From assembly GCA_013265495.1 (NCBI GenBank), contig MU057398.1, positions 434,001-498,000 on the forward strand: a stretch of DNA of 64,000 nt. The letters are read 5' to 3'. Under the pieces are notes generated by a model that saw nothing but the letters and a program-made list of their open reading frames with translations, had not been told where the DNA came from and did not search any database. The position numbers were made by a program, and so were the translations under genes. Shown here one piece after another: positions 50,778 through 64,000 of the stretch (within the stretch, counting starts at the first letter, position 1; the number at the start of each line of letters is the position of its first letter). The DNA is from Vicugna vicugna (lineage: Eukaryota).

Positions 50778-51244
50778 TGTGAAGGAAAAGCCCAGCTGGG
50801 CTAACAAGCTAAGTCACAAATCTAAGTGCAACAAGTGTCGGATTACTGATCTGAGTTCTGCTGGGCTAACTCATAAATCTGAAGTTTAGTGTCAGTCTAT
50901 TGGGCTAACGAGCTCAGTCACAAATCTAAGTGTGATAAGTGTCGGTTTACTGATATAAGTTCTGCCGGGCTAACTCGTAAATCCAAGCTCAACAAGTGTC
51001 AGTAACGTGATCTGTTCCAAATTGATAAGCTCCAGTGTACTGATTCCTTGCTTTTTGTTGTTTGAACCTTATTGGCTAATAGCCCCATACTTGTAATTAA
51101 CCCTATAAAACCTCATGTGCACGTCTTGGAGGTGCTCAGAGCTTCGGAGCAGAAGCCCCTCTGAGCCCGCCGGCGTAATAAATCTGAGTACTCCAACCCT
51201 CCGAGTGGTGCTTGTTTCTTGGCTGGCCTGTCATTTCCGTAACA
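50778..51244 (+). mobile_element. Isolated 467-bp LTR of the same family as the downstream provirus
   Basis: TGTGAAGGAAA...TTTCCGTAACA termini. By eye it is identical to 55840-56353 except for one 47-bp indel. Confidence 0.95.
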
Positions 51245-55839: not shown

Positions 55840-56353
55840 TGTGAAGGAAAAGCCCAGCTGGGCTAACAAGCTAAGTCACAAATCTAAGTGCAACAAGTGT
55901 CGGATTACTGATCTGAGTTCTGCTGGGCTAACTCATAAATCTGAAGTTTAGTGTCAGTCTATTGGGCTAACGAGCTCAGTCACAAATCTAAGTGTGATAA
56001 GTGTCGGTTTACTGATATAAGTTCTGCCGGGCTAACTTGTAAATCTAAAGTTTAGTGTCAGTTTACTGGGCTAACAAGCTAACTCGTAAATCCAAGCTCA
56101 ACAAGTGTCAGTAACGTGATCTGTTCCAAATTGATAAGCTCCAGTGTACTGATTCCTTGCTTTTTGTTGTTTGAACCTTATTGGCTAATAGCCCCATACT
56201 TGTAATTAACCCTATAAAACCTCATGTGCACGTCTTGGAGGTGCTCAGAGCTTCGGAGCAGAAGCCCCTCTGAGCCCGCCGGCGTAATAAATCTGAGTAC
56301 TCCAACCCTCCGAGTGGTGCTTGTTTCTTGGCTGGCCTGTCATTTCCGTAACA
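55840..56353 (+). promoter_or_regulatory. Proviral 5' LTR (514 bp)
   Basis: Imperfect inverted termini, a 104-bp tandem repeat in U3 (55859-55962 and 55963-56066), ATTGG 56180-56184, TATAAAA 56213-56219 and AATAAA 56286-56291. Confidence 0.93.
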
Positions 56354-56357
56354 TTTC

Positions 56358-56375
56358 TGGAGGCCCCAGCGAGAT
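56358..56375 (+). other. Primer binding site complementary to tRNA-Thr(UGU)
   Basis: TGGAGGCCCCAGCGAGAT, 4 nt after the LTR CA. It is the reverse complement of the mammalian tRNA-Thr(TGT) 3' end as recalled (ATCTCGCTGGGGCCTCCA). Confidence 0.85.
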
Positions 56376-57633
56376 ACAACCACGCCGGCCCCTTGAGCCG
56401 CTGGACTGGTGGCTCCGGCCGACCGGGGGACGGGACTCCGGCAGCGAACGAGGAGGCGCCACCCGACAGTATTCCGGGTTCTCTTTCGTGACGGCAACTC
56501 GGCCCCCCGGGTGGCTGGGCTACAACCAGAGCCAGACTCCGTGGAGGGACGGACAGACTCACCAGGTGGCCGTCCGGACAAGGTAGGATCCCCCGGGAGG
56601 AATCAGGTCCTGTCCCATTGGACAGAAGAGGAGGCTGATCCCCTCCTACAGGCTCTCCGTCTGATGGTAACTCAGACGGGGAAATCAGGAATCAGGTCAG
56701 GAATCAGGTCCTGTCCCAGTGGACAGAAGAGGAGGCTGATCCCCTCCTACAGGAAATAGGATATTGGTATTGGTGGGAGGAATGTTGTTAACCTCTGTGT
56801 GTGTGTGTATGTGTGAGTGAATGAGCGGCCTGTGAAGCATGCGATCAGGCTCGAGTTTGTAGCTCCACGGCATTCTGCTACGGAGTTCGAGTGAGTCCCA
56901 ACCTGCGGTTCCGTGGTGACCTCATACGGCTCAGGGCGGTATCGGTCCCTCAGGGTCCCGATCGGAGTCAGCGGCTTATACTGACCCGCCAAAGCTAAGA
57001 GGCACCTTCGTCCCCGCGAGGGGAGCGGCCAGGCGGACGCAACGAAAACCCTCCCTTGTCTTGTCTGCGACACCGGCACAGGGTGGCTACACTGGGAGGG
57101 AAAAGGACATAGCCAATGAGTCAACGCCCCTGTGCCCTTGGAGGCTAGGATGCTATTTCTTTGAGAAAGTCTCCTACCTGACTCTGTCACAGAACACCCG
57201 AGACTTATTGTTCCCCTACTGAACTGACCCAAGTAGTGCCCCTTTTGCCTAGCCCCAGACACCCAGGACGTAAGTTTAGAAGACGAATTCCTTCAGGACC
57301 GGGCTTGCCCAGCCCTGGAGGTCCCTTTTCTAGTCCATTTGTTTTGCCATCTGCCGTCAGTCCCACGCCCCTGATACGTTAGTTCAGAATATAGAGAGGA
57401 TTTAATGAAGAAAGTCCCTGAAACTGCTTGAGGCCTTGAGATCCAGAGACATCAGCTGAGACTGGAACCCAGAGTCCCTGACCAAGTTAGCCTTAAAACA
57501 ACTCATAGACCCAGCAAGAGAGCAGTCTCTCTGGGAACTCCGGTGTTTTGAAGAGTGAAGAAGAAAAAGATATAAAGGCTACCTTCCCAAACATCTAAAG
57601 CAACAGAACTATTATCCTTAAATATCTAAAAGA

Positions 57634-59220
57634 ATGGGAGGCTCTAAGTCAAAACCCACCACTCTAGACTGCATGATTAAGAATTTCAAAAAGGGGTTCT
57701 CAGGAGACTATGGAATTCGAATGACCCCTGGCAGGCTGCGCACTTTGTGTGAGCTTGAATGGACTGCCTTTGGAGTCGGGTGGCCCTCAGGAGGAACTCT
57801 GGACCTAGCAACAGTGCGAGCAGTCTATCAAATAATCACTGGAACCCCAGGCCACCCAGATCAATTCCCTTACATTGACTCCTGGCTGAATATCGCCCAG
57901 ACTCTACCCCCATGGATTCGGTTTTGCTCAAATGGACCTGGACAATGCAAGATATTAGCAGCTCAGCCAGTCCAGGCCAAAAAGACAGACAGAAAAAAAC
58001 CGATTTTCCAGGGAGACGCAGAAGACGAGATATGCCTGCCCCCTCCATATGCCCCCAAGGCACAAACACCTCCAGTCCCATTGGAGACACCACCACCCTC
58101 TGTGTCACCACCTCCCCAACCTGAGGACCCAGAGGCAGAACTCAGCCCCCAGCCTGAGCCGGTAGGAAGGAGACTCCGCTCAGCACAAGCCGTGAAGCCA
58201 GCACCACCGGCCCTCCAAATGCCGCTGCGGGAGACACAAGGGCCACAGCAAGTTGGGGAAGACGGGACTGTTCAGCCTGGGCACCCCGTACTCTACTACC
58301 AACCCTTTAGCACCACAGACCTTCTCAATTGGCGCCATCACACTCCTTCCTACTCTGAAAAGCCACAGGCTATGATTGACCTCATAGAGTCTATCTTCCA
58401 TTCTCACCGGCCCACCTGGGAAGATGTCCGCCAGCTGCTTCTGACTCTTTTCAATACAGAGGAGAGGAGACGCATTCTCACTGAAGCACGAAAATGGCTG
58501 CAGGGCCGAGCCCCTGGGGACACAATGGATGTTGAGGCGTGGGCCATGACACGTGCCCCTGACACCAGACCAGATTGGGACTTTAACACTCAAGAAGGAA
58601 GAGAAGCACTACGTGAGTACCGGGAGGCCATCCTACAAGGGCTAAAAGCAGGAGCCAAGAAGCCAACTAACATGTCTAAAACGACCACAGTGACCCAGAG
58701 GCCAGACGAAACCCCCACTGACTTCTATGAGAGACTGTGTGAAGCATTCCGAGTCTACACTCCTTTTGATCCTGAGGCCCAAGAAAACCAACGGATGGTC
58801 AACGCTGCCTTCGTAGCCCAATCATACCCAGATATACGCCGGAAACTCCAAAAACTGGATGGATTCGCAGGGATGAACGCTACACAGCTGCTGGAAGTAG
58901 CAAACAAAGTTTTTGTAAACCGAGAACGGGAAGCCCAACGAGAAGCAGACCAGCGAATGAAGCAGAAAGCCGCGCTCCTTGCAGCAGCCCTGGGGAAAAC
59001 AGGCTTCAGCCAGAACCCTGCACCACCCCGGAAGAGGGGACCCCAACCATGGATGCCCCTGGGCCGAGACCAATGTGCATACTGCCGGGAGACTGGGCAC
59101 TGGAAGAACGAGTGCCCAAACAGAAAGGATGGAAAGAGAGCACTCCCTAAAAGGCCTACTTATCAGCTGGAGCCACCAGCCAGTAATCACATCGGACTGG
59201 CTGGGGTTAACTCAGAATAG
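57634..59220 (+). CDS. gag: Retroviral Gag, 528 aa
   Basis: Myristoylation-type start MGGSKSK, PPPY late domain, major homology region (QRPDETPTDFYERL) and one CCHC knuckle CAYCRETGHWKNEC. Ends in TAG. Confidence 0.96.
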   Translation: MGGSKSKPTTLDCMIKNFKKGFSGDYGIRMTPGRLRTLCELEWTAFGVGWPSGGTLDLATVRAVYQIITGTPGHPDQFPYIDSWLNIAQTLPPWIRFCSNGPGQCKILAAQPVQAKKTDRKKPIFQGDAEDEICLPPPYAPKAQTPPVPLETPPPSVSPPPQPEDPEAELSPQPEPVGRRLRSAQAVKPAPPALQMPLRETQGPQQVGEDGTVQPGHPVLYYQPFSTTDLLNWRHHTPSYSEKPQAMIDLIESIFHSHRPTWEDVRQLLLTLFNTEERRRILTEARKWLQGRAPGDTMDVEAWAMTRAPDTRPDWDFNTQEGREALREYREAILQGLKAGAKKPTNMSKTTTVTQRPDETPTDFYERLCEAFRVYTPFDPEAQENQRMVNAAFVAQSYPDIRRKLQKLDGFAGMNATQLLEVANKVFVNREREAQREADQRMKQKAALLAAALGKTGFSQNPAPPRKRGPQPWMPLGRDQCAYCRETGHWKNECPNRKDGKRALPKRPTYQLEPPASNHIGLAGVNSE

Positions 59221-59284
59221 GAGAGACCGGGCTCCCTGCCCCTGGGCCCCCGGGAGCCCAAGGTCAAGATGTTTATAGGGGGCC
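59218..59284 (+). promoter_or_regulatory. gag-pol readthrough signal (UAG, 8-nt spacer, pseudoknot)
   Basis: S1 is GGGCTCCC 59229-59236 with GGGAGCCC 59252-59259. S2 is GGCCCCC 59245-59251 with GGGGGCC 59278-59284. Loop 2 is 18 nt. Confidence 0.88.
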
Positions 59285-62200
59285 AACCAATGACTTTTAT
59301 GGTAGACACAGGAGCAGAGTATTCTGTGGTGACCCAACCTGTAGCCCCCCTGACCAAAAAAAAGGCGACTATTATTGGGGCTACTGGGGACTCAACTGCC
59401 CGCCATTTCTGCCAACCACGATCCTGTCAAGTAGGGGGCCATCTAGTGACACATGAATTTTTATATTTGCCTGAATGCCCAATACCATTGCTTGGAAGAG
59501 ACCTTCTGTCTAAATTGGGGGCACAAATTACCTTTGTCCCCGGGAAACAGGCACATCTGACCCTACAGGGAGAGTCTATGATTCTAGCCATCTCAGTTCC
59601 CCGAGAAGAAGAGTGGCGTCTGTATGAGAGCAGAGAACTCCAGGAAAATCCTTGCAAACTCCTGGAAGAGTTTCCATTAGTCTGGGCTGAAAATGGACCA
59701 CCAGGCTTGGCACATAATCAGGCACCACTGGTGATTGACCTCAAACCTGGAGCCAGCCCAGTCAGACAGAAGCAATATCCCATGCCTCGAGAGGCCCACC
59801 TAGGAATCCAGAAGCATATACAGCGCCTCAGACAAGAGGGAATCCTAACTGAGTGCAGATCTCCCTGGAACACACCGTTGCTCCCAGTGAAGAAAGCAGA
59901 AGGAACAGATTATAGGCCAGTGCAGGACTTACGAAAAGTAAATGAAGTAGTCACTACAATACATTCAGCAGTGCCAAATCCATACACTCTTCTGGGCCTC
60001 ATTCCGGCAGATGCCAAATGGTTTACATGCCTAGACCTTAAAGATGCTTTCTTCTGTCTTCGACTCTCACCTGTGAGCCAGCCCATATTCGCATTTGAAT
60101 GGGAGGATCCCCATACAGGAGGAAAAACTCAACTGACATGGACACGTCTCCCCCAAGGCTTTAAAAACTCGCCCACCTTGTTCGGAGAGGCACTAGCCGC
60201 AGACCTTGTAAAATTCCCTGGGGAAACATTGAACTGTACTCTGCTCCAGTATGTGGATGACTTGCTGTTAGCCAGCCCCAGTGAAGAGGACTGTTGGAAA
60301 GGAACTCGAGCCCTCCTAGGGTTACTCCAAACAACTGGGTACAAGGTCTCATGGAAAAAGGCCCAGATCTGCAAAAAGACAGTCAAATACTTGGGATTTA
60401 TTATCTCAGAGGGACACCGAGCCCTAGGACCAGAACGAAAACAAGTTATTTGTGCCATACCCAGACCGGAAACAAAAAGGAAACTGAGAGAGTTCCTGGG
60501 CGCAGCTGGGTTTTGCCGGATCTGGATCCCCGGATTTTCAAGAATAGCCAAGCCCCTCTACGAAGCAACTGCTGGATCAGGAAAAGAAACCCTCAAATGG
60601 GAAACTAAACAAGAAAATGCCTTTAGGCAATTAAAGGAACTACTAACCCAAGCCCCAGCACTAGGCTTACCAGATGTAACACGAGAGTTTAATCTGTTTG
60701 TACATGAAAGAGACCAAACTGCTCTTGGAGTCCTAACTCAGAATGTGGGGCCATGGCAGCGCCCTGTGGCTTATTTATCTAAAAGACTGGACCCTGTAGC
60801 ATCAGGATGGCCACCCTGTTTACGGGCCCTCGCTGCCACAGCCCTCCTGGTCAATGAGGCAGACAAACTCACACTGGGACAGACTTTAAATGTAAAAGTG
60901 CCCCATTCTGTGGTGGCCCTGATGAATGGCCCAGGTTACAAATGGATAACTAACACAAGGATGACCCACTACCAGGGGCTTCTATGTGAAAATCCAAGAG
61001 TCCGTCTAGAGACTGTGCAAACCTTAAACCCAGCCACATATTTGCCTGAAGGGGAAGGGCAGCCTGACCACAACTGCGAAGAAATCGTTGAAGAGGTGTA
61101 TGCAAGCAGGCCTGATCTAACCGACAAGCCCCTGCAAAACCCAGACCTGGAACTTTTCACAGACGGCAGCAGTTACATGCAAGATGGACAACGGCGAGCA
61201 GGTTACGCTGTAACAACAACCCGAGAGGTAATAAAGGCAGAGTCCCTTCCCCCAGGATGGTCTGCTCAGCGAGCAGAGATCTGGGCACTGGTCCAGGCAC
61301 TAAGGGAAGGGAAAGGAAAACGAGTCAATATATACACTGATTCCAAATATGCATTTGCAACCTTGCATGTACATGGAGCCATCTATAAGGAGAGAGGACT
61401 TTTGACTGCTGGGGGAAAAGAAATCAAAAACAAAGAAGAAATTTTACAGTTACTGGAGGCAGTATGGGATCCAAAGGAAGTGGCCGTTATTCACTGTAAG
61501 GGACATCAAAGAGGAAATGACCCTGTGAGCCAGGGGAACAGGCTAGCTGATCAAAAGGCAAGAGAAGCAGCCGCCTGGGAACACTCAGTAATTAAAGTTA
61601 TGGCAGCGCCAGAGCTACCCACTGCCCCAGAATATAGTCATGATGAAAACAAGTGGGCACAGGCTGAACGAGGAGAGAAAAGAAAGGACGGATGGTGGAT
61701 CATGACGGATGGAAGGGTTTTCATCCCAGAACGACTAGCTTATCGTTTAGTCCAACAACAGCACGAAGCCACACATATGGGAAAAACAGCTTTAGAGGCC
61801 CTCTTAAAGCGATATTTCCTAATTTCTCGTCTCCCTACTCTATGTGCATCAGTTTCCCAACGCTGCTTGCTCTGTGCACAAAACAATCCAAAACAAGGGC
61901 TCACTGGGCCAATGGGAATACAACGATGTGGATTGGCTCCCTTTGAAGATTTAGAAGTGGACTTTACTGAACTTGGGCCCAGTAAGGGATATAAGTACCT
62001 GCTGGTTTTCGTCTGCACCTTCACAGGGTGGGTAGAGGCCTACCCCACCAGGACAGAGAAAGCAAGGGAAGTGACAAAGGCTCTTCTCAGGGATGTTATC
62101 CCTCGATTTGGAATGCCTACCTCCATCGGGTCTGACAATGGACCCGCCTTTGTGTCAGAAATTGTACAGCAAGTGGCAAAGGCACTGAGCATCCGCTGGA

Positions 62201-62856
62201 ACCTACACACAGCATACCGGCCTCAAAGCTCAGGGAAAGTAGAACGAATGAACAGAACTCTAAAACAAATTATAGCTAAAATCAGCCAAGAAACCCAGCT
62301 TCCCTGGGTGGACATTCTACCCCTGGCTCTGTTGCGAATTAGATGCACCCCAAGATTTAATATTGGGTACTCTCCCTTTGAAATCCTCTATGGGCGACCG
62401 CCACCTTTAGTCAGGATGAGAAACCCCACCCCAGAAATAGGAAATCTAGGGCTCCACCAACAACTGTTGGGACTAGGAAAAGTACTACGAGAAGTTTGGG
62501 GTTGGGTGATAGAGAAAACCCCCATTTCATTAGGGGTTCAAGTGCATCCCCATAAACCAGGTGACCAGGTATGGGTGAAGGATTGGAAAAAGGAACCTCT
62601 CAAACCAACATGGAAGGGACCATATTTAGTGGTATTAACTACTCCTACAGCTGTTAAAGTTGCAGGAATCGTCCCTTGGATCCACCACTCCAGAGTCAAG
62701 AGAGCAACTGCACCTCAGACAGAGGGTCCCTGGAAAATTGAGAGTGTCCCGGGAGACCCGCTCAAGATCAAGATCAAGAGGGACCAGAAAAGGATCGACG
62801 AGCCCTGCTCTAGCCACACCCGGAAGCTGGCTAGTCAACGCACGGCCGAAGCTTGA
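59221..62856 (+). CDS. pol: Retroviral Pro-Pol, in frame with gag via UAG readthrough
   Basis: Protease VDTGA, RT LPQG and YVDD, RNase H FTDGS and YTDS, integrase HHCC with D-D-E (VDFT, SDNG, VERMN), and GPY. No interruptions. Confidence 0.97.
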   Translation, partial: ERPGSLPLGPREPKVKMFIGGQPMTFMVDTGAEYSVVTQPVAPLTKKKATIIGATGDSTARHFCQPRSCQVGGHLVTHEFLYLPECPIPLLGRDLLSKLGAQITFVPGKQAHLTLQGESMILAISVPREEEWRLYESRELQENPCKLLEEFPLVWAENGPPGLAHNQAPLVIDLKPGASPVRQKQYPMPREAHLGIQKHIQRLRQEGILTECRSPWNTPLLPVKKAEGTDYRPVQDLRKVNEVVTTIHSAVPNPYTLLGLIPADAKWFTCLDLKDAFFCLRLSPVSQPIFAFEWEDPHTGGKTQLTWTRLPQGFKNSPTLFGEALAADLVKFPGETLNCTLLQYVDDLLLASPSEEDCWKGTRALLGLLQTTGYKVSWKKAQICKKTVKYLGFIISEGHRALGPERKQVICAIPRPETKRKLREFLGAAGFCRIWIPGFSRIAKPLYEATAGSGKETLKWETKQENAFRQLKELLTQAPALGLPDVTREFNLFVHERDQTALGVLTQNVGPWQRPVAYLSKRLDPVASGWPPCLRALAATALLVNEADKLTLGQTLNVKVPHSVVALMNGPGYKWITNTRMTHYQGLLCENPRVRLETVQTLNPATYLPEGEGQPDHNCEEIVEEVYASRPDLTDKPLQNPDLELFTDGSSYMQDGQRRAGYAVTTTREVIKAESLPPGWSAQRAEIWALVQALREGKGKRVNIYTDSKYAFATLHVHGAIYKERGLLTAGGKEIKNKEEILQLLEAVWDPKEVAVIHCKGHQRGNDPVSQGNRLADQKAREAAAWEHSVIKVMAAPELPTAPEYSHDENKWAQAERGEKRKDGWWIMTDGRVFIPERLAYRLVQQQHEATHMGKTALEALLKRYFLISRLPTLCASVSQRCLLCAQNNPKQGLTGPMGIQRCGLAPFEDLEVDFTELGPSKGYKYLLVFVCTFTGWVEAYPTRTEKAREVTKALLRDVIPRFGMPTSIGSDNGPAFVSEIVQQVAKALSIRWNLHTAYRPQSSGKVERMNRTLKQIIAKISQETQLPWVDILPLALLRIRCTPRFNIGYSPFEILYGRPPPLVRMRNPTPEIGNLGLHQQLLGLGKVLREVWGWVIEKTPISLGVQVHPHKPGDQVWVKDWKKEPLKPTWKGPYLVVLTTPTAVKVAGIVPWIHHSRVKRATAPQTEGPWKIESVPGDPLKIKIKRDQKRIDEPCSSHTRKLASQRTAEA

Positions 62857-63043
62857 GGAAAGCCCAACGCAGCTGTTAAATATATTTCTTTTGTGCTCCC
62901 TTGCCTCTTTCCTTGTTTTCTATACCAGTCTGCGTACTAGCAGTGGGGCTAGCTAGCGCCACCCCACCTGACTGGAACATAGGCCATAAAATCCTGATAG
63001 CTATTTTATATCTTCTTATAATTAGTGCCATCACCGCAGCATC

Positions 63044-64000
63044 ATGTCTAAGATAATCATAAGGCTGATGTTACTAATGCTAATGTCCTCACTCTCCTTG
63101 GCTGTACAGTGCACCTGCATGGAACCGGGTGACAGGTGGTCCATATACCGGCCTGTATTTTCAGCTTATACTTATCAGCCGAGTCAATGCTATGACTCCG
63201 CTTCAGAGTGCACATATCAGGGAAAATCCTACTGGATTGGCACAATTAAGGCTTATTATGTATCTAGCATCAAATGCTATGGCACACCCGGCAAGCTGGT
63301 GTGCTGGACCAAGCAAACACATTATGGGATGAGTGATGGAGGGGGCGTACAGGACCAGGCACGCCGGCAAGCAGTCCAACAAGCAGTCCAGAGGCAACAC
63401 CGGAAGTTATTACCTACCCGGAAGCCAATAAAACTTCCATCTTTAGCCGAGCCTCGGGATCTGGATCCACAAATAAATGGGCTGTTAGCCGCAGTCCATG
63501 GGATTCTCAATCATTCCAATCCAGACCTGGCTAAAGATTGCTGGCTATGCTTGCGTCCTGGCCCCATCCAGCACCTGGCTTTACCTCTGACAAACCTCAC
63601 TAAGACTTTCACCACAACTCATAGCGATGCCGTTTCTACCACTAGGAGTTCCAGGCTGAACTGGGTACAGCTCGCCTACAAGGCACCAGAATGTTATTTC
63701 AACAATGGAACTAATCCTTTAGAGGGCAATCTAACTATAAATCAATGTATTAAAACCTCTCACTGTATGGGTCTAGGGTGCCAACCCACACAAAGATGGT
63801 GTTCTAATAACGGGACTTATTTTGTATGTGGTGAATTTGCCTACCGGTGCCTCCCTGCCAGATGGGCAGGGTTATGTGCTTTGGCTTATCTCACTCCCCG
63901 AATGGACATTATGCCTAATAATCAAAGTCTGCCCATCCCTGTCATAACTCACCAGCATCCACGGAGAATAAAACGAGCTATACAATTGATCCCCTTGCTA
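63044..64000 (+). CDS. env: Retroviral Env: signal peptide, complete SU and start of TM, open to the window end
   Basis: Hand translation gives 319 codons with no stop: MSKIIIRLMLLMLMSSLSLAVQCTC...CWTKQTHYGMSDGGGVQDQAR (motif 63332-63364)...DCWLCL (CWLC 63539-63550)...RRIKR|AIQLIPLL (furin site 63965-63976). It is missing from the ORF track because no stop falls inside the window. Confidence 0.93.
   Translation, partial: MSKIIIRLMLLMLMSSLSLAVQCTCMEPGDRWSIYRPVFSAYTYQPSQCYDSASECTYQGKSYWIGTIKAYYVSSIKCYGTPGKLVCWTKQTHYGMSDGGGVQDQARRQAVQQAVQRQHRKLLPTRKPIKLPSLAEPRDLDPQINGLLAAVHGILNHSNPDLAKDCWLCLRPGPIQHLALPLTNLTKTFTTTHSDAVSTTRSSRLNWVQLAYKAPECYFNNGTNPLEGNLTINQCIKTSHCMGLGCQPTQRWCSNNGTYFVCGEFAYRCLPARWAGLCALAYLTPRMDIMPNNQSLPIPVITHQHPRRIKRAIQLIPLL

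Follow-up and report, generated by a model that had tools for sequence, protein, structure and literature searches.

An open env with the syncytin-1 receptor-binding motif in a probable young endogenous gammaretrovirus of Vicugna vicugna

We analyzed a stretch of 64,000 nucleotides (nt) from the genome of Vicugna vicugna (assembly GCA_013265495.1, contig MU057398.1, positions 434,001 to 498,000 of the forward strand; hereafter the window), whose last 957 positions hold an open reading frame (ORF) for a retroviral envelope glycoprotein (env). This ORF is very probably the env of a complete, very recently integrated and possibly still active endogenous gammaretrovirus with multiple copies, for which an ASCT2-type receptor is probable, and it looks like a viral gene of a young provirus, not a candidate syncytin. 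What we describe below on anatomy, number of copies, youth, homology and fold was observed or computed, while receptor use, fusion competence and spread by reinfection are inferred.

Anatomy of the env and its provirus

The env frame opens at the ATG at position 63044 and continues for 319 stop-free residues up to the window edge at 64000, and the Pfam family TLV_coat matches this part of the protein (E 2.8e-26). The frame covers the surface subunit (SU) and the start of the transmembrane subunit (TM), with the following features.

63044..64000, plus strand: env (signal peptide, whole SU to R311 and first 8 TM residues); ORF, Pfam TLV_coat
63107..63415, plus strand: receptor-binding domain (RBD) of SU with CTC, CYX5C, CX8CW and SDGGGVQDQAR, about residues 22-124; motifs and AlphaFold2 model
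63326..63364, plus strand: GMSDGGGVQDQAR, env residues 95-107
63539..63550, plus strand: CWLC (CXXC) of the SU C-terminal domain, putative partner of the TM CX6CC, residues 166-169; motif scan
63965..63976, plus strand: RIKR, predicted furin-type SU/TM cleavage site, residues 308-311; motif scan

The preliminary description of this DNA, made from the letters of the window, had listed a signal peptide, CWLC, six sequons, RIKR at codon 311 and the beginning of a fusion peptide, and all of these are present in the 319-residue translation. The sequons (N-X-S/T, n=6) lie in SU at residues 156, 184, 221, 229, 256 and 293, the cysteine motifs of the RBD read CYDSASEC at residue 49 (CYX5C) and CYGTPGKLVCW at residue 78 (CX8CW), and cleavage is predicted after codon 311, where AIQLIPLL starts the fusion peptide. 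The description had also considered that TM might be broken beyond position 64000. Read past the window on the same contig, the frame contains no stop or frameshift and ends at window-equivalent 64597 (the window's numbering continued) after a total of 517 aa, so the break in TM is absent. The TM comprises a glycine-rich fusion peptide, an immunosuppressive domain (ISD; LQNRRGLDLL at residue 375), CX6CC (CLFLNEECC at residue 392), a hydrophobic anchor and a cytoplasmic tail of ~50 residues. The full set of gamma-type Env landmarks (CXXC, CX6CC, ISD, furin site, fusion peptide and anchor) was thus found, and by its sequence env reads as a standard gamma-type class I fusion glycoprotein with a two-domain SU. 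Its 3' end shares 27 nt with the U3 region of the 3' long terminal repeat (LTR), and a purine tract precedes this overlap.

The env belongs to a provirus of 9,245 bp, which extends from window position 55840 to window-equivalent 65084 in the order LTR, tRNA-Thr primer site, long leader, gag, UAG, pro-pol, env and LTR. Its parts are listed below; the LTR end was set by aligning the 3' flanks of other copies.

55840..56353, plus strand: 5' LTR, 514 bp, TG...CA, 0/514 differences from the 3' LTR
56358..56375, plus strand: 18-nt primer-binding site for tRNA-Thr(UGU), the complement of its 3' end, 4 nt (TTTC) past the 5' LTR
56580..56588, plus strand: candidate splice donor AAG/GTAGGA in the leader, junction 56582/56583; RNA-library contigs
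57634..59220, plus strand: gag, 528 aa, ending in UAG; ORF, with Gag_p30 (E 1.6e-59), Gag_MA and zf-CCHC from Pfam
59221..62856, plus strand: pro-pol, in the gag frame behind the UAG; ORF, Pfam and motif scan
63016..63026, plus strand: candidate env splice acceptor ...TTATAATTAG/T, junction 63025/63026; RNA-library contigs
window-equivalent 64571-65084, plus strand: 3' LTR, 514 bp, TG...CA, 0/514 differences from the 5' LTR

The gag product begins with MG and carries PPPY at residue 136 and one CCHC knuckle, while pro-pol contains the protease motif DTGA, the reverse transcriptase (RT) motifs LPQG and YVDD, RNase H, and an integrase with a C-terminal domain of the murine leukemia virus (MLV) type. 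The gammaretrovirus-like (class I) features found in the family are Gag_p30/MA, a gag-pol frame with one stop, the MLV-type integrase C-domain and 4-bp target duplications. The shared frame suggests that pro-pol would be expressed by read-through of the UAG. Within pol (window 59269-62853), the RT-RNase H part is 87% identical to one unnamed protein and at most 63% identical to any named one; the nearest named relatives are endogenous retroviruses (ERVs) from lizard, caecilian and frog annotations (60-63%), slightly ahead of MLV (58%) and porcine endogenous retrovirus (PERV; 56%). Judged by these comparisons, the provirus is gamma-type and has no close named relative.

The assignment of the primer to tRNA-Thr was examined in the genome itself. 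The reverse complement of the 15 non-CCA bases of the primer site had 53 matches there as against 0 for a control. A tRNA scan of the first six of these loci found no tRNA, the loci being proviral primer sites, and fifteen further regions contained three tRNA-Thr(tgt) genes; accordingly, 3 of the 21 match regions scanned hold a tRNA-Thr(tgt) gene with the match at its 3' end. The U3 region contains ~3 units of a 104-nt tandem repeat (55858-56123), the number of which varies between LTR copies, with variants of 449 to 467 bp nearby. The leader is unusually long, ~1,260 nt from the primer site to the gag ATG, and includes a 101-nt tandem duplication at 56590-56753, which is 98% alike across a 55-nt core.

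Copies of the family and their age

All copy counts in the genome are lower bounds. A DNA search with SU gave at least 44 matches (40 of 70 candidates scored), eight of them at 100% over all 957 bases, and a search with the 517-aa protein gave at least 88 (83 of 463 candidates scored), of which eight are full length and stop-free, all at least 99.8% identical. The next-longest protein matches carry one to nine stops each, and no older intact, conserved copy of env was present among the 88 matches. About 18 of the 88 span residues ~340-517 alone; a plentiful subfamily thus lacks most of SU in its env.

We retrieved 20 copies for reading of the frames, eight young ones and 12 others with 85-99% DNA identity. 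The env frame is open in all eight young copies, six of which have all three frames open (of the other two, one has a frameshift in pol and one a run of N), whereas among the 12 others env is fragmented in 11 and unreadable in one because of an N run. The env protein is identical in seven of the eight young copies. In the seven complete young copies the two LTRs of a pair differ at 0, 5, 1, 1, 1, 1 and 2 of 514 positions, and in one additional young copy, which contains an N run, at 4. Target duplications were read in eight copies (a ninth was excluded, since LTR indels shifted the fixed-length reading window), and perfect 4-bp duplications, each different from the others, flank seven of the eight, the exception being the copy in the window. 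A search with the LTR returned 1,535 candidates; the 40 that were scored are all full length and at least 99% identical, and 23 of these lie outside the nine retrieved proviruses. The family is multi-copy and combines decayed older members with a burst of near-identical copies.

The seven complete copies, aligned, vary at 26 of 9,246 columns, with 2-22 differences between any two, and shared variants split them into groups of three and four. The separation is clean at five or more substitutions and a 3-nt indel in gag, and three more sites follow it with one copy excepted. The sole env difference among the seven, which is silent, also separates the two groups. Read in this way, the variants imply two co-existing virus sub-lineages rather than a single burst. 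An env that is open in 8/8 young copies, identical as protein in 7/8 and changed only silently between sub-lineages fits spread by reinfection, alongside env-less derivatives that would multiply otherwise.

Mammalian neutral rates are 1-2.2e-9 per site per year. At these rates one difference in 514 bp corresponds roughly to 0.4-1 million years, a coarse measure as LTR ages are, and the differences within LTR pairs would make most of these insertions younger than about 2 million years. Likewise, the divergence of 0.02-0.24% between copies would take the source they share back no further than a few hundred thousand to one million years. Sampled env words were recovered at 0.90-0.96 in 14 public sequencing runs classed as DNA or unclassified, from six studies under three organism labels, one of which may be the assembly's own source. 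Contamination or somatic infection of the sequenced sample was considered and rejected in view of the distinct flanks and duplications of the copies together with the presence of env in DNA runs under three organism labels.

Relatives, fold and receptor

A homologue search in a collection of 5.8 billion proteins listed 120 hits. The best matches to env, both at 71%, are an unnamed Logan protein (P0003) and an entry named 'syncytin-1 [Camelus ferus]' (P0004, a truncated product of 367 aa). The RBD of env is 72-73% identical to these two proteins, both of which have SDGGGAQDQAR. Further hits include one at 52%, a mole protein at 42%, the simian retroviruses SRV-1, -4 and -5 at 37-40%, reticuloendotheliosis virus (REV) at 35-38%, and Syncytin-Ory1, the possum TvERV and many entries annotated as 'syncytin-1-like' at 34-40%. 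Among the 120 hits listed, 53 carry the strict SDGGGX2DX2R motif and 80 carry [ST]DGGG. When only the RBD (residues 22-150) was used as the query of a word-index search, two proteins were found, P0004 and P0003; syncytin-1, RD114 and baboon endogenous virus (BaEV) were not among its results. P0048, a match to syncytin-1 at E 2.6e-231, therefore stands for the ERV-W group in our tree.

The camel entry has a counterpart in the present genome. An older env relative at C4688:1900197-1901738, whose protein shares 71% identity with that of the window env, carries three TGA stops and is 95% identical in protein to 'syncytin-1 [Camelus ferus]'. Since this relative is broken by stops, that annotation probably names a decayed ERV env rather than a syncytin. 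The camelid-like genome proposed in the preliminary description is backed by the same two comparisons, indirectly: the nearest named protein is from Camelus ferus at 71%, and the C4688 relative is at 95% to the camel entry, values that fit a camelid other than C. ferus.

Syncytin-1 is the closest protein of known structure. In a phmmer search its chain 8ouh_D is the best Protein Data Bank (PDB) match to env (E 3.5e-26), and GMSDGGGVQDQAR is identical over 13 residues, in agreement with the preliminary description. The cysteine spacing, which had been called HERV-W-like, agrees within CYX5C and CX8CW and differs between them, where the spacer is five residues longer in env. The RBD features of the interference group are PCXC, CYX5C, CX8-9CW and SDGGGX2DX2R, as given in sections of Cheynet et al. 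(PMC1524976), and env has three of these four: CYX5C, CX8CW and SDGGGX2DX2R (SDGGGVQDQAR, residues 97-107).

For the tree, 44 rows were chosen from the 120 hits and analyzed with a quick IQ-TREE run with syncytin-2 and syncytin-B as the outgroup; RD114, BaEV and human syncytin-1 are not among the rows. Env pairs with the 71% Logan protein (support 100) and lies within a motif-bearing clade of 40 rows (SH-aLRT 99), apart from syncytin-2 and syncytin-B. Besides env with the Logan protein, this clade includes P0048 grouped with an env from deer, the env of the mole, and a core of 33 rows.

An AlphaFold2 model of SU (residues 22-311, 70-row alignment) has a mean pLDDT of 81.8. Searched against the PDB with Foldseek, the model finds first 8ouh_D, syncytin-1 bound to ASCT2 (E 4.9e-7, TMt 0.60, 40% identity over 100 columns, root-mean-square deviation (rmsd) 10 Å); Suppressyn-ASCT2 (8oui_D) ranks 20th, with filovirus GP1 chains between. 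With VIA-align, the RBD again matches 8ouh_D (Z 11.9, rmsd 6.2 Å, 92 of 122 residues aligned, model residues 1-103), and the C-domain matches the SU of syncytin-2, 7oix_A (Z 11.2, rmsd 2.4 Å, 103 aligned, model residues 159-262). These two matches indicate a two-domain SU, which is modeled as a syncytin-1-type RBD followed by a conserved C-domain. By its motifs, predicted fold and place in the motif-bearing clade, the SU appears to belong with the HERV-W/RD114/type-D (RDR) envelopes, as had been proposed, although it falls outside the core SRV/REV clade.

We consider the use of an ASCT2-type receptor by env probable, and the identical motif core together with the shared fold makes it the most likely reading. 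According to parts of the published work, every RDR Env tested uses ASCT2 or ASCT1 (PMC9967133, PMC11536146), human ASCT2 worked for all five pseudotypes tested while species specificity was variable (PMC11536146), and the motif region of 18 residues is required for binding to human ASCT2 (PMC1524976). In the mechanism that we propose, env would be translated from a spliced, subgenomic mRNA, and its precursor would be cleaved at RIKR and carried on virions, with CWLC and CX6CC holding SU and TM together. Binding of the RBD to a neutral amino-acid transporter of the ASCT2 (SLC1A5) type would then trigger the refolding of TM that drives membrane fusion.

The tail of env past the anchor aligns with ERV-W and MLV-type tails around KLQM. 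It is long enough for an R-peptide-like segment and by analogy resembles an uncleaved viral tail. In MLV-type viruses the R-peptide holds fusion in check until the viral protease cuts it at maturation. With a tail of this kind, full-length env would be less likely to fuse cells constitutively.

Competing explanations and known systems

Several observations weigh against the reading of env as the gene of a complete young gammaretrovirus with an ASCT2-type receptor, and they concern the receptor, the expression of pol, the locus and the transcripts. First, the fourth interference-group feature deviates: the PCXC position reads QCTC (residues 22-25), in which CXC is kept and the proline is absent. 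Env falls outside the 33-row core clade of SRV, REV and Ory1 (support 99), and the 44-row tree gives no resolution of the branching order of the basal lineages (env, ERV-W-like and mole). Outside the motif, identity to syncytin-1 is modest, and the RBDs superpose with an rmsd of 6.2-10 Å. Env might be functional on a receptor other than ASCT2/ASCT1, with the motif shared by descent alone. Its long branch outside the core RDR clade and the modest RBD identity to syncytin-1 (about 38-40% across 92-100 aligned positions) would agree with this, and RDR members vary in ASCT1/ASCT2 use and species specificity, according to passages of PMC11536146. We nevertheless hold another receptor to be rather unlikely, since ERV-W env, equally basal in the tree, uses ASCT2, the region described as essential for binding in the cited part of PMC1524976 has its 13-residue core identical here, and the uniform ASCT2/1 use of the tested RDR Env (PMC9967133, in part) argues in the same direction.

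Second, the 68 nt from the gag UAG fold at -26.7 kcal/mol (z 0.54, computed without pseudoknots), no better than shuffled sequences, so that the case for read-through is the frame. An 8-bp complementary pair lies 8 nt downstream of the UAG.

Third, the provirus in the window is the only one of the eight copies read without a target duplication (ATTG vs TTTC), and it stands in a cluster of five same-family LTRs inside ~16 kb, which consists of its own two and the following three.

50778..51244, plus strand: further same-family LTR with one U3 repeat stretch less, 4.6 kb ahead of the provirus on its 5' side
window-equivalent 65689-66137, minus strand, and 66489-66937, plus strand: head-to-head same-family LTRs, 351 bp apart, 99.8% alike

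No matching 4-bp duplication was found for any of the five. TTTC directly follows both the 3' LTR and the lone upstream LTR, and the same bases separate the 5' LTR from the primer site. Given the missing duplication and the LTR cluster, the window locus may be recombined, tandem proviruses included, or mis-assembled through identical repeats. A single inversion between the inverted LTRs was tried as the cause of the missing duplication and rejected, as the TTAT/ATAA flank pair fits it but the other flanks do not. In addition, three other copies contain N runs and the assembly is at scaffold level; part of the near-identity among copies could therefore come from gap filling. Distinct duplications, LTR differences and lineage-specific variants run counter to a pure assembly artefact.

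The window copy could accordingly be a chimera, produced by proviral recombination, tandem proviruses or an assembly join through identical repeats, in a family whose existence and env would still be real. The duplication that 7/7 other copies read possess and this one lacks, the TTTC after two LTRs, the head-to-head pair in the cluster of five and the N runs that betray scaffolding all lean that way. The window copy itself, however, contains no N and shares lineage-specific variants with two other copies, and proviral recombination is a natural process that leaves a real locus. We regard a chimera as possible but on the doubtful side; if it were one, the apparent intactness of the locus would not reflect a single natural insertion.

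Fourth, the transcripts do not correspond to the exact env. Four RNA-type runs from three studies, all of them consisting of contigs, were aligned to the provirus and its flanks. They span 27-29 of 30 bins, with depth peaking on the LTRs, and depth in the flanks is nil save for one contig (depth 1) in the left flank in one run. Their similarity is mixed (in X17, 369 contigs reach at least 99%, 559 fall within 95-99% and 370 within 90-95%), the SU bins are thin, and fixed other letters stand at many SU positions. In contigs from two runs, each of a different study, leader position 56583 is directly connected with 63027, which lies 17-18 nt ahead of the env ATG; these contigs could be DNA copies of spliced RNA. 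The joint reads AAG/GTAGGA ... TTAG/T, with a canonical GT..AG pair one base leftward, an offset that would be explained by a one-base difference in the source copy. The same contigs also skip 833 nt of SU. From the fixed SU differences and this skip we conclude that the RNA libraries contain relatives of the family, some without SU, rather than the exact window env. Several different SU-skipping joints occur in the RNA contigs, some with other letters between (L010, 7572 to 8406, 7592 to 8490, 7641 to 8679 and 7514 to 8629).

Env-less members do multiply, as the SU-less matches in the genome and the SU-skipping contigs indicate, and this raises the alternative that the frame is open from youth alone and that the protein is already missense-defective, spread by complementation or intracellularly. 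The ~18 of 88 matches that cover only residues ~340-517 and the spliced contig without SU would be expected under it. Set against it are the env open in all eight young copies with protein identical in seven, a sole difference among the seven complete copies that is silent, the presence of every conserved cysteine and motif, and two sub-lineages that would imply several rounds of replication with env kept. On balance we judge a defective protein unlikely.

The last alternative is a domesticated host gene. The preliminary description had offered three roles, an infectious env, a placental fusogen and a receptor-blocking restriction factor; the first agrees with the complete provirus and its at least eight near-identical copies, and nothing supports the other two, no older intact copy being present among the 88 matches. 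For domestication one can cite an intact env with the syncytin-1 receptor-binding motif and ISD, and family transcripts in RNA libraries labelled reproductive system (two runs, with no other tissues in the comparison). Multinucleate trophoblast giant cells occur in camelids, from which no syncytin has been described according to passages of PMC8083812, and any expressed RDR-type env could block its own receptor as a side effect through receptor interference (described in part of PMC9967133). We consider domestication very improbable all the same, because all eight unbroken env lie in near-identical young proviruses (at least 99.8%), the older relative of the camel 'syncytin-1' type has three stops here, the tail is like an uncleaved viral tail and the RNA contigs differ from the exact env. 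Youth by itself accounts for the open frame. The open env with the syncytin-1 motif would here be a viral gene and not a candidate syncytin.

We found no description of such an endogenous retrovirus family in camelids in the full-text literature, a body that leaves subscription journals uncovered, nor in the available sections of a camelid transposon survey (PMC8605555). In a table of PMC4335370, the alpaca has one of the highest values among mammals for the ratio between recent and older ERV insertions (176 and 96). Tentatively, an RDR-group retrovirus could be colonising a camelid-type germ line now or have done so very recently; several copies would then retain the capacity to produce every viral protein, an infectious form may still circulate, and expressed env might perhaps block the receptor or contribute to the formation of trophoblast giant cells. 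To our knowledge, few ERVs of large mammals combine a full set of open genes with an LTR divergence near zero. The cases in pig, koala, cat and mule deer serve as models of viral germ-line entry, and the present family, if this reading is true, would parallel the koala or mule-deer cases in large livestock; it is of interest to researchers on retroviral germ-line invasion. Its env is a second, independent short-SU relative of HERV-W env and could help reveal which parts of the syncytin-1 RBD are important for ASCT2 binding. The family is also relevant to the safety of cell lines and biological products from such animals, for which RD-114, a safety issue in feline cell lines (PMC9046391, in part), sets a precedent.

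Compared with known systems, env is most like HERV-W Env/syncytin-1. Both have a short SU of ~290-300 residues without the type-D N-terminal extension, they have the same GMSDGGGVQDQAR and agree in CYX5C and CX8CW, syncytin-1 is the top PDB match by sequence and by fold, and the tail segment around KLQM is alike in the ERV-W stand-in P0048. They differ in the longer CYX5C-CX8CW spacer of env, in the 38-40% RBD identity over 92-100 positions (35% over the whole protein for P0048) and in a sister relation that has no support in the 44-row tree. Syncytin-1 is a single old domesticated locus, whereas env here sits in at least eight near-identical complete proviruses, and the primer site of HERV-W is for tRNA-Trp, as against tRNA-Thr in the vicugna provirus. 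The closest proteins among the hits listed, camel 'syncytin-1' (P0004) and Logan P0003 at 71% overall, stand apart in age: the P0004 lineage is old and broken in this genome (three TGA stops), and the window env is a separate, much younger branch.

RD114, BaEV and REV share the genome plan: Gag_p30 and integrase are MLV-like, gag ends in an in-frame stop, and env carries SDGGGX2DX2R, CWLC and CX6CC, with REV env 35-38% identical. Their SU, in contrast, is of the long type-D form with an N-terminal PCDCxGG...CPC region that is absent from env here; REV sits in the core clade that excludes env, and RD114 and BaEV lie outside the direct comparison. SRV-1, -4 and -5 and Mason-Pfizer monkey virus have the same motifs (env 37-40%), but they are betaretroviruses with a long SU, while gag-pol here is gamma-type.

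In copy pattern, the closest parallels are koala retrovirus, PERV, the mule-deer CrERV and the cat ERV-DC/RD-114, which have many near-identical open proviruses, 4-bp duplications, sub-lineages and env-deleted derivatives. The family described here has the same pattern. It differs from them in host lineage and env type, and insertional polymorphism and infectious virus have been shown for those systems, whereas the vicugna family is known from its sequence.

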